From assembly GCA_977017645.1 (NCBI GenBank), contig OZ360249.1, positions 35,340,001 to 35,404,000 on the forward strand: 64,000 nucleotides of DNA, given 5' to 3'. Positions within the stretch are counted from its first letter, which is position 1. The number at the start of each line of letters is the position of its first letter. Below are positions 57,724 through 64,000 of the stretch, in pieces. The notes below the pieces were generated by a model, which had not been told where the DNA came from, ran no database searches, and saw nothing but the letters and a program-made list of their open reading frames with translations. The DNA comes from Torpedo marmorata (taxonomy: Eukaryota). The position numbers and the translations under genes were made by a program.

Positions 57724-57890
57724 AGAGTAGCACGGTTAGCGTAGCTGTTAGTGCAATGCTATTACAGTACCAGCGACCCGGGTTCAAATCCGATGTTGTC
57801 TGTAAGGAGTTTCTATGTTCTCCCTGTGTCTGCGTGTTTTTTTTTGGGTGCTCTGGTTTCTTCCCACCCTTCAAAAACGTACGGGGTTCC
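57724..57890 (+). mobile_element. V-SINE, 3'-truncated
   Basis: tRNA head plus V-domain. Confidence 0.8.
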
Positions 57891-57945
57891 ACTTCTCTGT
57901 TCTTCACCATCATTCCCTTAAAGTGCTGCTAAGATTGAATCCTCA

Positions 57946-59015
57946 TGATATAACCATATATAACCATATAACATTTACAGCACAGAAACAGGCCAGTTCG
58001 GCCCTTCTAGTCCATGCCGAACACATTCTCCCACCTAGTCCCACTGACCAGCTCCCGGCCCATAACCCTCCACACATCTCTCGTCCATATACCTATCCAA
58101 CTTTTCCTTAAACATTAAAATTGAACCTGCATCTACCACTTCGGCCGGAAGCTCGTTCCACCCTCCTACCACCCTCTGAGTGAAGAAATTCCCCCTCATG
58201 TTTCCTCTAAACTTTTCCCCCTTCAATCTCAATCCATGCCCTCTTGTTTGAATCTTCCCCTCTCTCAATGGAAAAAGCCTGTCCACATTGACTCTATCTT
58301 TCCACTTCATAATTTTAAATACCTCTATCAAATCACCCCTCAACCTTCTACGCTCCAGGGAATAAAGTCCCAGCCTGTTAAACCTTTCCCTATAAATCAA
58401 ACCCAGAAATCCAGGCAACATTCTTGTAAATCTCCTCTGCACTCTCTCTATTCTGTTTATATCCTTCCTGTAATTCGGTGACCAAAACTGCACACAATAT
58501 TCCAAATTTGGCCTCACCAATGCCTTATACAACTTCAACATGACATCCCAACTCCTATATTCAATACTCTGATTTATGAAGGCCAACATACCAAATGCCT
58601 TCTTCACCACCCTATCTACGTGTGACTCAACTTTCAGGGAATTATGTACCAGATTCCTAAATCCCTCTGTTCTACTGCACTTCTCAATTATCTTCCATTT
58701 AACATGTATGACCTTTGCTGATTAATCCTACCAAAATGTAGCACCTCAAATTTATCAGTATTAAATTCCATCTGCCATGTTTCCGCCCACTCTTCTAACT
58801 GTCCAATATCCCCCTGCAAGCTTTGATATCCCTCTTCACTGTCCACAACACCACCAATCTTTGTATTATCTGCATACTTACTAATCCAATTTACCACCCT
58901 ATCATCTAGATCATTAATATATATGACAAACAACAATGGACCCAGTACTGATCCCTGAGGCACTCCACTAGTCACCGGACTCCAATTTGACAAACAATTT
59001 TCCACCAGTACTCTC
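57946..59015 (-). mobile_element. 5'-truncated CR1 LINE (HER1-like)
   Basis: ORFs with SGVPQGSVLGPLLFVIYINDL, KYADNTKIGG, LYKALVRPNLEYCVQFWSP, LERRRLRGDLIEVFKI, TRGH and FFTQRVV. (ATAACCAT)n tail on the + strand. Confidence 0.95.
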
Positions 59016-59070
59016 TCAAGGTTACAGACTAAATCACGGACCGTCTTAGGATGCAGCCTACTGAACACTA

Positions 59071-59365
59071 CAGATTCAAGATTCAAGATTCCATTATTGT
59101 CATGTAATAAAACAGGAGTAATATTGCATGAAATTGGCTGCTCCATGGCTTGCTGCATGACCCTGACTTTCAGGAGCAGGGGTTGTTGCCAAACCTTAAG
59201 CAGATCGAGGCAGAAAGAGCAGTGCTCCGGTTTCCATCCACCCATCAAAAACGTATGGGGTTTGTAGATTAATTGGTATATTTGGGCAGCATGGGCTCGT
59301 GGGCCGGAAGGGCATGTTACCGCGCTGTATGTCTAAATTTAGAACTTAAAATAAAATTTAGAATT
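59071..59365. mobile_element. Family D tail fragment (-, ~59071-59155) and SINE 3' half (+, ~59222-59365)
   Basis: (CAAGATT)n + attgtcatgtaataa; gtgctccggtttcc...gggctcgtgggccggaaggg...ctgtatgtctaaa. Confidence 0.7.
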
Positions 59366-59698
59366 TAGGTCAGTGTATTCCAATTGTTAAACATCAGCTA
59401 CTACAATTACATGTTTGCCTCTTCAGACTTGACTGGGATAATGCATGGGGAACTTAACAGACCCAAGTGTGGATTTGTCCAGCAATTCCAATAATACCAT
59501 GACAGATAATTCAATGATTCAAATTCCTCTAACAAGTAGGAATGCAAAACCACTGTGCAGGTAAATACTGCTCATAGAGAAGCCCACGGGCTTCTCTGCT
59601 ATTAGTCTGGACATAAACATGGAGAGCCAAGGAAAAGCAACATCCAGATTAATCCTTATGCTTTTGGAGAACTGGTAATTTTTTACCCAAGAATAAAA

Positions 59699-59953
59699 GG
59701 CGGCACGGTTAGTGCAGCGGTTAGCGCAACACTGTTACAGCGTCAGTGATCGGGACCGGGGTTTGAATCCCACGCTGTCTGTAAGGAGTTGGTATGTTCT
59801 CCCCGTGTCTGTGTGGGTTTTCCCCGGGGGCTCCGGTTTCCTCCCACCGTTCAAAATGTACTGGGGGATGTAGGTTAATTGGGTGTAATTGGGTGGGAGG
59901 GCTAGTGGGCCGAAATGGGCTGTTACCGTGCTGTATGTCTAAATTTTTTAAAA
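59699..59953 (+). mobile_element. Full-length V-SINE inserted in the left palindrome arm only
   Basis: GGCGGCACGGTTAG tRNA head, V-domain and tail. The right arm is contiguous at ~63531-63535. Confidence 0.9.
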
Positions 59954-60424
59954 TGTGGCAGATAAAAAGCCTCTTAGCCCATGTATATGTCAGGTATTTC
60001 AAATAACTATCCAAAGATTCCCCAAACCCAACAAGTTTCCATTTTTCAGTGTATATCCAATTCCCTTTTGAATCCCTTCTGTTCTGCCTCACACCATATT
60101 TTCAGGCAAAGTAGTCAAAATCATTACACCCGTCACACTGCTTCAAACTTAATTCACTTTTTGATCTGCTGATGTTGAAGAAATTACTCTATATAATTGC
60201 CAAACCACAAAAGCAAATGTTTATAATTAATGACAGTTAGCGACTGCAGTACAGTACGCATGAGTGGATAGGATCATTGTCCAAGTCTGCCTGAGACTTT
60301 ACTTCTGGAGTAAACCGGTGATTGCCTGCTCATCAAATTAGGTTAGCAATCACTCTGTGAAGGGCTGAACTATGTGGAAAGGGAGAGAGCCTCAGTGATA
60401 GTGATGAGAATATTAAGTGTTGAA

Positions 60425-60570
60425 TGTTGAATGTTAGAGTGTTGAATGTTAGAGGCGCTTAGGCAATTTCTGCCAGTGGCGAATCTGTCTGCCTTGCAGC
60501 AGGCAAAAATAAATTTCATGGAATATGACACTGTCTTATTACTATGACAATAAATTGAATCTTGAATCTT
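60425..60570 (+). mobile_element. Family D 3' tail fragment inserted in the left arm only
   Basis: ggcaatttctgccagtggcgaat...actatgacaataaattgaatcttgaatctt matches the reverse of 27235-27365. Preceded by short duplications of the target (tgttgaa)x3. The right arm reads ggatgatcatcttcaacac without it. Confidence 0.85.
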
Positions 60571-61552
60571 GATCATCCATTATGCTTAAATTTCTTAGAA
60601 GTGTGCTCAAAATTTACTTCCAAAATTGCAGAGAGAAAATGCAGAAAATTCAATATTCTGTATTTTATCAACTTGTCAAAAGGGGGTGATTGGCAAACAA
60701 TCAAGGCTCTCCACTGGCATGTAATATTTATTGGATGTTGAATTGGACACGTAAAAAAAAAGCACTTGCTGAAAATAACCATATTGAAGCACGAAAGCCG
60801 AGAAAATAGACAACAGCGCCCATTTTTGAGCATGGAGATTCCATTTAGCCTGGAGTAGACACTTTTAGTTGAAATCGTGCCAATCAGAAAATTGGACTGG
60901 GCACTTCTGACCATTGATCCATGTGAATGTGTTTGACTTTTCCCAGGTTCAAATAATCATTAGTTGATTTTATTATTCATAATGTCTATTTTGGAGCTCA
61001 AAGCTCCACATTACAATTGTGGTGGGAAAACCTCAGTGTCATTATGATACTAGTTTTATAGCAGCTATTCACTCATTATATGAGTTTGTGATTTTTTTTA
61101 CTATGTTAAGAGTTAACATTAATATCAGATGATGGGCTAATTGGACACTCCCCAAAGTGCAACAACTAAAGGGGAGTGCTTTCTTTTATCTGTCACAATG
61201 CTCATCCAATGGATGCTTCATGGCTAACACAATTGCAAGTGACAATATATCCTTGGGTAACCACCTGCTTTTAAGCAGGGTCATTTGATGGCAAGTAAAA
61301 ACATGCCCATCAATGAAGAGCCTATTCTTGCATTGTGCCTTGGTCTTTCTGATATATTCACTGGCTTAGTTCATTCCAAATCTGTCATCATTGAGATACC
61401 TCAAATCCTGCTCTGCAAAGCCACCAGCACATGAACGAATGAATCTCTGGAACAATTAGTTCAACAGCTTGCTACAACATCTCTAAAATTCCTCATGAGC
61501 GGCACCTCACATGAAGAACACAGACTCCAAGGATCGCCAATGTTCTGGTGTA

Positions 61553-61709
61553 TGGTTTGACCAAAATGTACACAAATACCCTTTAATAAAATCTGGAATA
61601 TGCACTTTAATCACATGTGAATTGTTTGATTGCAAAGTTAAAACAGTGGAGCCAGGGGCAAATAAAGGAAAAAAATGTGTCTTTGTCTCAAACGTTATTG
61701 AGGGCACTG
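61553..61709 (-). mobile_element. Tc1/mariner TIR fragment next to the palindrome apex
   Basis: The minus strand begins TA|CAGTGCCCTCAATAACGTTTGAGACA..., a typical Tc1 long-TIR start. The other end is missing. Confidence 0.75.
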
Positions 61710-62270
61710 TATATCGGAGTGATTAACACATCACTTTATACACCAGAAGAGTGGAGATGCTTGGAGTCTGTGTTCTTCTTGTGAGGTGGCACTCATGAGG
61801 AATTTTAGAGATGTTGTAGCAAGCTGTTGAACTAATTGTTCCAGAGATTCATTCATTCATGTGCTGGTGGCCTTGCAGAGCAGGATTTGATGAGGGATCT
61901 TCATGCATTTTCTGGCCTCCACCATCTCATTATTAATAAGAGTTAAGGCACGAGAGTGTGTTTGAAGGTCTTTCACAGAATTCCAGGTATCTCAATGACG
62001 ACAGGTATGGAAAAACTAAGCCTGTGAATCCATCAGAAAGACCAAGGCATAATGCGAGAATAGGCTCCTCATTGTTGGACACGTTTTACTTCCTGTCCAA
62101 GGAGCCCGTTTTATACCAGCTGGTGAGCCAAGGATATATTGTCTCTTCCAGTAGTGTTAGCCATGAAACATCCATTGGATGAGCATTGTGACAGATAATT
62201 TCTGAAGAAAGCACTCCCCTTTAGTTGTTGCACTTTGGGGAGTTTCCAATTCGCCCATCATCTCTTGATA

Positions 62271-62492
62271 CAGTAAAACCCCTGGTATCTGGCACCTATG
62301 GGGATTGTTAGATGGCGGACAAGTGAATTTTCCGGTTGCTTGAGGTTGTGTGTTGCGTGGATTGGCGAACTAACAGCAAGGCGTGCCAATTGTAAACTTC
62401 CATATTTTTTACCTATTTATTTTCTGCAATTTTTTTGCTGGTTGCTTGAGGCTGCCGGTTGCTTTAATTCCAGATAACAGGGGTTTTTACTT
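62271..62492. mobile_element. Tigger/pogo-like MITE in the right arm only
   Basis: TA|CAGTAAAACCCCTGGTATCTGG ... CCAGATAACAGGGGTTTTTACTT|TA. The left arm has the empty site (taacattaatatcagatgatggg, ~61113-61136). Confidence 0.88.
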
Positions 62493-63586
62493 TATTAATG
62501 TTAATCCTTAAAATAGTAAAAAAAAATCAGCAAACTCATATAATGAGTGAATAACCTATAAAACTAGTATCATAATCGCTCTGGGACTCTCCCACCATAA
62601 TTTTAGTGTGGAGCTTTGATCTCCAAAATAGACATTATGAATAATGAAATCAACTCATGAATGTCTGACCCTGGGAAAAGATGAACACATTCACATCGAT
62701 CATGGTTAGAAGTGCCCAGTCCAATTTTCTGATTGGCACAATTTCAACTGGAAGTGTCTACTCCAGGCTAAATGGAATCTCCATGCAATTTTTGCTCAAA
62801 AATGGGAGCTGTTGTCTATTTTCTCGACTTTCGTGCTTCATTATGGTTATTTTCAGCAAGTGCTTTTTTTTTTACAAGTGTCCAATTCAACATCCAATAA
62901 ATATTACATGCCAGTGGAGAGCCTTGATTTTTTGCCAATCACCCCCTTTTGACAAGTTGATAAAATACAGAATATTGAATTTGCAGCATTTTCTCTCTGC
63001 AGTTTTGGAAGTAAATTTTGAGCACGCTTCTAAGAAATTTAAGCATAACGGATGATCATCTTCAACACTTAATATTCTCATCACTATCACTGAGGCTCTC
63101 TCCCTTTGCTCATAGTTCAGCCCTTCACAGAGTGATTGCAACATCATTTGATGAGCAGGCAATCACCAGTTTACCCCAGAAAATAAAGTCTCAGGCAGAC
63201 TTGGACAATGATCCTATCCACTCATGCGTACTGTACTGCAGTCGCTAACTGTCATTAATTATAAACATTTGCTTTTGTGGTTTGGCAATTATATAGAGTA
63301 ATTTCTTCAACATCAGCAGATCAAAAAAGGAATTAAGTTTGAAGCAGTGTGATGGGTGTAATGATTTTGACTACTTTGCCTGAAAATATGGTGTGAGGCA
63401 GAACAGAAGGGATTCAAAAGGGAATTGGATATACACTGAAAAATGGAAACTTGTTGGGTTTGGGGAATCTTTGCATAGTTATTTCAAAGAGCTGATACAG
63501 ACATGGGCTAGGTGGCATTTTTTCTGCCACATTGTGTTGATGTAAAAATTCACCTGTTCTCCAAGAGCTTAAGGATTACTCTAAAT

Positions 63587-63960
63587 CAGTGGTTTTCAAA
63601 CTTTTCTTTCCACTCACATACCACTTTAAGTAATCCCTATGCCGTAGGTGCTCTGTCATTAGTAAGGGATTACTTAAGGAGGTATGCGAGTGGAAAGAAA
63701 AAGTTTGAAAACCACTGTTTTAATCGTACATAATTTACTCGTTATGTGCACGGTTTCATAACTCCAAAGGAAATGGGCCAATGACAATTTTTCTCAAGCA
63801 AAATATTTCAGTAACAATTGGGTCTAGAGCAGTGGTTCTCAACCTTTTTTTCCCACTCACAAACCACCTTAAGTAATCCCTTAATAATCACAGTGCACTT
63901 ATGGCATAGGGATTACTTAAGGTGGTATGTGAGTGGAAAGAAAAAGTTTGAAAACCACTG
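63587..63960. mobile_element. Composite hAT element: two palindromic MITEs (63587-63717 and 63830-63960) around a 112-bp passenger
   Basis: A single perfect 8-bp TSD CTCTAAAT (63579-63586, 63961-63968) flanks the whole unit. Confidence 0.9.
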
Positions 63961-64000
63961 CTCTAAATGGTGCTTTTTCTTGTTTCTCCATGTTTATGTT

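Follow-up and report, generated by a model that had tools for sequence, protein, structure and literature searches.

A probable old fold-back inverted duplication with patchily converted arms in the genome of Torpedo marmorata

How does a palindrome with kilobase arms of non-coding DNA arise, and does its persistence point to a function? The question is raised by a long inverted repeat at the end of a 64,000-nt stretch of Torpedo marmorata DNA, called the window in the following (positions 35340001-35404000 of contig OZ360249.1 in a 6.2-Gb assembly; G000:C68). The palindrome is probably an old fold-back inverted duplication that was accompanied by a deletion, stabilised by its spacer and by insertions, and patchily converted between its arms. 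It is a known kind of structure, and judged from its sequence it consists of low-copy non-coding DNA that is likely functionless.

The inverted repeat was recovered by a repeat search and by self-BLAST where the first-pass annotation had placed it, far beyond chance (BLAST E 4e-62 to 0). With the next 100 kb downstream added to the window (L003:n denotes window position 64000+n), the whole palindrome spans 57887-64657, that is 6,771 nt, of which 657 nt lie past the window end. It does run off the window, as had been proposed, but ends soon after, and its left end is 57887 instead of 59610. The epithet 'giant' is overstated for 6.8 kb in total and ~2.2 kb of paired DNA per arm (left arm ~2.19 kb, private inserts excluded). 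The arms 59017-59643 and 64592-63967 pair at 92%, and the outermost pairing, beyond a piece of a long interspersed nuclear element (LINE), joins 57887-57950 to 64657-64594. Aligned without private inserts, the arms give 2,163 columns with 161 mismatches (92.6% identity) and 18 gap events, and the palindrome region contains no N. A sensitive comparison of the flanks for arm extension past both ends gave only dispersed repeats, and after L003:657 the right arm passes into unique DNA. The main parts, one of which adjoins a short interspersed nuclear element (SINE), are given below with their strand where one was assigned.

57727-57886, plus strand: truncated SINE without its 3' part, adjoining the left arm's outer end; 61 near-full matches, best 83%
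57887-61553, plus strand: left arm, likely the derived inverted copy
61554-61737: spacer of 184 nt, a cut Tc1/Tc3-type end followed by an imperfect hairpin; also in a relative, organism B
61738-64000, plus strand: in-window part of the right arm, likely the original copy, continuing to L003:657

Two inverted copies around an unduplicated 184-nt spacer have the layout of a fold-back duplication. Almost no spacer had been noted earlier; the long arms, however, stop at 61553 and 61738, and what is centred at 61726/61727, within the spacer, is no more than an imperfect hairpin of 13 bp and a 6-nt loop. A cut Tc1/Tc3-type transposon end occupies 61552-61712 and overlaps the left arm by 2 nt (AT). 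The spacer matches the ends of a 3-kb Tc1/Tc3-type element at 85-87%; this element, located ~230 kb beyond the window (L052:9315 to L053:2337), has 184-nt inverted ends and a transposase remnant. At the other junction, the truncated SINE departs from a full copy where the left arm begins, again with a 2-nt overlap (TT), and its end at 57886 likely marks the second breakpoint. Sequence may have been lost beside the inverted copy; the SINE and the Tc1-type element are both cut at the junctions.

Fold-back duplications are described with an unduplicated spacer and 2-8 bp of microhomology (PMC3907307), and fold-back priming has been demonstrated in yeast (PMC10622511). At the present locus, the end of a resected break may have folded back, paired with a short inverted match and served as the start for a copy of the right arm. 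The copied strand would have rejoined inside the upstream SINE, with loss of the intervening DNA. The spacer, later insertions and point changes would then have removed most of the cruciform instability and allowed drift to fixation, and occasional arm-to-arm conversion of stretches one to a few hundred bases long would have reset parts of the arms to near identity in each lineage. Two histories fit the centre. In one, the break lay inside the Tc1 element and the fold-back came after it; in the other, the fold-back took place at the small hairpin and was near-perfect, with a Tc1 insertion and a one-sided deletion coming later.

The age of the structure can be read from other organisms. A search of sequencing runs with the unique right arm, which finds near-identical DNA only, returned five runs, all of DNA, that belong to two organisms and come from two studies; an RNA run was not among them, which carries no information on expression. 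Four of the five, three of them from one sample of organism B, were compared with the spacer and right arm at 80% likeness. In organism B, which differs from the window by roughly 8-13%, one contig of 1,676 nt runs along the right arm with its miniature inverted-repeat transposable element (MITE), continues through the spacer and comes back along the left arm on the opposite strand. Since this contig spans all of them, the palindrome, the Tc1 end and the MITE predate the split from organism B. Organism A (~1.2% different, 9/729) yielded right-type and left-type contigs, the latter with the window's left-arm letters. The palindrome is thus common to the species, with the apex crossed in B and both arm types present in A; rather than a single arm, the relatives carry both, and the orthologous palindrome that the first-pass annotation proposed to look for exists.

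The insertions found in one arm only, and the older pieces found in both, agree with this age. The labels SINE, Tigger and 'family D' stem from recognition by the first-pass annotation and by the analyst.

57951-59016, minus strand: LINE fragment, left arm only; RVT_1 E 3.9e-11; young, best other copy 96.7%
59069-59367: pre-duplication pieces in both arms, namely a 'family D' tail (59069-59135), an 80-nt piece (59142-59221) and a SINE 3' fragment (59222-59367)
59690-59955, plus strand: SINE, left arm only; best other copy 89.5%
60425-60572, plus strand: 'family D' retro-tail, left arm only; young, best other copy 98.5%
61891-61985: 95 nt, right arm only; no other match in 1.35 Mb
62264-62492: MITE, right arm only, called 'Tigger' by the first-pass annotation; also in organism B's right arm
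63580-63975: hAT-type composite MITE, right arm only; 8-bp target duplication CTCTAAAT

The SINE, the 'family D' tail, the Tc1 end, the MITE and the hAT composite are present as had been described, and private inserts on both arms confirm that the palindrome predates several waves of transposition. Two amendments are needed: the LINE at 57951-59016 had been left outside the structure, and the extra 95 nt are more likely a left-arm deletion than an insertion. The left-arm piece of organism B extends into this stretch and its record length is consistent with its presence; from these record coordinates, the 95 nt were probably deleted later from the left arm. The retro-tail at 60425-60572 is missing where contigs of organisms A and B span its site and is therefore likely recent, consistent with its 98.5% identity to another copy. 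Nor are the arms devoid of recognisable transposon sequence, as had been thought, since ~215 nt per arm are old elements common to both (59069-59135 and 59222-59367). The shared SINE piece, used for polarising the arms, shows 4 changes per arm, 8 shared and 1 in both, without asymmetry. Genome-wide, the 80-nt piece matches at exactly three places, all of them local and 86-92% identical (59142-59221, L003:389-472 and L003:3199-3277), and it likely goes back to a small templated insertion older than the fold-back. The surroundings of the third copy were compared for a larger, earlier duplication and show no further homology.

Divergence between the arms is strongly patchy rather than uniform. 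Mismatches per 100 columns vary from 1 to 16 (chi-square 75.6, 20 df, p=2e-8), and the longest identical run of 144 nt was reached in 2 of 20,000 shuffles; further runs measure 131 and 120 nt. Three stretches mark the extremes.

59315-59445: identical run of 131 nt, partner L003:165-295; candidate conversion tract
60012-60301: block of highest likeness, in which runs of 120 and 144 nt are identical, paired with 63183-63473; candidate conversion tract, 37-38% GC and not GC-enriched
61186-61400: block of lowest likeness (16 mismatches per 100) and the one best suited to dating the duplication

The comparison with organism B suggests how the patches came about. Being older than the split from B, the duplication should, without conversion, have left arms at least as different as orthologues are. 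Over 62940-63323, however, the arms differ at 12 of 378 sites (3%), whereas the two contigs of B show 27 and 30 differences from the right arm (7-8%; one-sided Fisher p 0.008 and 0.002), which indicates arm-to-arm gene conversion. Such a higher likeness within than between species was found in this block only and not in the inner block, where 19 of 115 sites differ between the arms and 15 and 18 differ from B's arms (B counts obtained by subtracting the tallies of two runs). The most alike block is not more conserved towards organism A (11/518 changes, against 9/729 elsewhere), and GC content is 33-38% in alike and 33-43% in diverged blocks, a measure of composition only with substitutions unpolarised. 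Organism A has one contig over 62931-63449, with five changes of its own (63184-63402) where the window's arms agree. Sites 62618 and 62686 were considered as further conversion sites and not counted, as they lie within a few bases of arm differences. Taken together, gene conversion between the arms, acting in patches, is likely, and with both arms sequenced in relatives the locus could document how long conversion tracts have been over extended periods.

Several observations weigh against this account of the locus. The organism A contig over 62931-63449 has a depth of 19.3 against 9.3-17 for single-arm contigs, about twice the lowest, so that a collapse by the assembler is possible and the contig is given little weight. 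The evidence for conversion consists of contig tallies from one B sample and one block, with 40 of 266 difference rows covered, and does not extend to a view of derived bases common to both B arms at individual sites. Towards B the alike block changes more slowly (7-8%) than the inner block (15/115, 13%; p 0.09-0.15), and some constraint is possible; a faster rate in the B lineage would also weaken the comparison of arms with B. As to the fold-back itself, 2-nt overlaps arise by chance at ~13% of random junctions (PMC3907307). Finally, such a structure is uncommon in the sampled genome: no other local inverted match of low-copy DNA with arms >250 nt occurs in 1.354 Mb, made up of 554 kb surrounding the window plus four further blocks of 200 kb, a sample from which no rate is derivable.

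The instability of long palindromes had been taken as a sign that this one is kept for a function. The argument is weak, as spacer, divergence and inserts are known to remove most of the instability. In yeast, a 200-bp spacer lowers the rearrangement rate ~20-fold and 94% identity lowers it ~15-fold (PMC10164571), and asymmetric centres are described as stabilising palindromes (PMC8701086). With a 184-nt spacer, 7% divergence and asymmetric inserts, persistence of the palindrome needs no selection, and neither does its patchiness, which gene conversion explains.

Functional readings were nevertheless weighed. According to the first, the arms would hold duplicated conserved non-coding elements such as enhancers, and the alike blocks would reflect slow change under purifying selection. 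The lower distance to B of block 62940-63323 (7-8%) than of the inner block (~13%) goes in this direction without reaching significance. Selection alone, however, cannot bring the arms of one genome closer to each other than to the other species (3% vs 7-8%), the B contigs carry 18 and 25 gap letters in that block, and organism A has its five own changes in 63184-63402. We consider conserved enhancers an unlikely explanation. No CpG-rich unmasked window was found in the palindrome, where the arms mask each other in the scan, and the measured blocks hold 0-8 CpG.

A long hairpin RNA locus is likewise doubtful. Here, a transcript crossing the apex would form a duplex for cleavage by Dicer or editing by ADAR, with pairing under selection. 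The structure survived at least one split at 8-13% divergence and has perfect runs of 144, 131 and 120 bp, and selection for pairing would also predict arms closer to each other within a species than between species. Yet G-U-compatible differences are balanced between the strands (45 vs 38, p=0.51), so the expected strand bias towards G-U pairs is not found, and four arm probes revealed no third long match as a target, in a search that can miss common words. Inserts of 150-1,070 nt are tolerated on both arms, including a recent one close to the best block. That no host gene was found in 554 kb is a weak point. It stems from two rough screens, one of 86 frames chosen by composition or position and the other of 131 of 160 splice-bounded candidates, which yielded only a rapsyn fragment, a Tc3-type transposase and weak matches below the cut-off; an exon-like candidate at L003:8847-8993 had no homologue in a weak search. 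Within the arm frames, Pfam at its cut-off matched only the LINE (56 of 71 listed frames scanned), and Rfam at the gathering score had no match in the palindrome. A relaxed Rfam search gave 42 matches, all below the gathering score and set aside, of which 41 fell on two self-palindromic transposable elements and one, weak, at the right arm's outer end. A self-palindromic dispersed repeat pair at L003:1229-1641, forming a ~230-nt hairpin, carries many sub-threshold matches to microRNA families. A stronger version would make the locus an ancient hairpin RNA gene outside transposons, a vertebrate counterpart of fly hairpin RNAs (hpRNAs), whose arms would co-evolve by conversion and selection and keep 120-144-bp duplexes for Dicer, ADAR or sensors of double-stranded RNA. 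We hold it to be improbable; the locus would gain in importance if it were a transcribed hairpin under selection.

Foldback-type elements combine long inverted arms with a short centre, an outline that the palindrome recalls; an undescribed giant fold-back transposable element with the palindrome at its centre had been proposed. The probability of this is very small. Neither outer end (57887 and 64657) carries a terminal repeat or a target-site duplication, which argues that the palindrome is not a mobile element, and the left end adjoins a cut SINE. In the 6.2-Gb genome, long matches of the four arm probes are confined to the palindrome's two arms (the search skips very common words), with one short weak match elsewhere for each of two probes (42 nt and 99 nt); the copy number is therefore two arms at one locus, without dispersed copies. 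No transposase was found in the frames scanned. An assembly fold-back is practically excluded, for although palindromes are a known artefact of reads and assemblies, the arms show 7.4% divergence, 18 gap events and inserts of their own, the B contig crosses the apex, and two organisms from two studies show both arms, in keeping with the first-pass annotation.

Apart from the palindrome, a non-autonomous hAT-type element of 1.08 kb lies 1.1 kb past the right arm (L003:1744-2825; 35405744-35406825). It has 14-bp terminal repeats and an 8-bp target duplication and holds ~440 nt of rapsyn coding DNA together with a piece that matches a tandem repeat after the parent reading frame. Inclusion of this piece suggests capture from DNA. 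A protein search gave 66 matches genome-wide, some of them split pieces and one the parent; the likely parent (L151) is 89% identical and lacks terminal repeats. Of five copies examined, four retain the two ends and are flanked by distinct target duplications that agree in 6-8 of 8 bases. The element is a multicopy Pack-TIR. The multicopy cases named in PMC8277862 are few and have far lower copy numbers, the words 'rapsyn' and 'shark' do not occur in the main text of that paper, and a literature search on rapsyn, transposons and elasmobranchs found no paper. The rapsyn-carrying transposon is possibly more interesting than the palindrome and constitutes a separate lead. Further away (L056-L058, ~267-284 kb past the window end), a stretch resembling a long terminal repeat retrotransposon is duplicated locally in direct orientation over several kb (78-90%).

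Among known systems, Drosophila hpRNAs (PMC10317233) and mammalian expressed inverted duplicates (PMC5398296) resemble the palindrome in that any transcript through its apex would form a long duplex; unlike at hpRNA loci, there is no G-U bias here, and a hairpin RNA is only hypothetical at this locus. Primate X/Y palindromes (PMC3723533, PMC8981503, PMC8327919) share inverted arms, a spacer and arm-to-arm conversion. They are, however, far larger, >99% identical, gene-bearing and GC-biased, whereas the palindrome described here has 92.6% identity, no gene was found and its alike tracts are not GC-rich. Intergenic inverted repeats of Caenorhabditis (Zhao et al. 2007, PMC1803023) are similar in their age across species, short spacer and non-coding arms that are closer within species, and the pattern at the palindrome fits the concerted evolution of inverted arms described for them; those repeats flank paralogous gene pairs and mostly show 95-100% identity, in contrast to the partial homogenisation (84-99%) and the lack of a detected gene at this locus. 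Fold-back inverted duplications of human (Hermetz et al. 2014, PMC3907307) and yeast (PMC10622511) are new, large and mostly terminal, their spacers measuring 766-70,466 bp, whereas the palindrome is interstitial and old and has 2.2 kb per arm and a 184-nt spacer. With these fold-back duplications it shares the inverted copy, the short unduplicated spacer, the 2-nt overlap where arm and spacer join and a probable neighbouring deletion.

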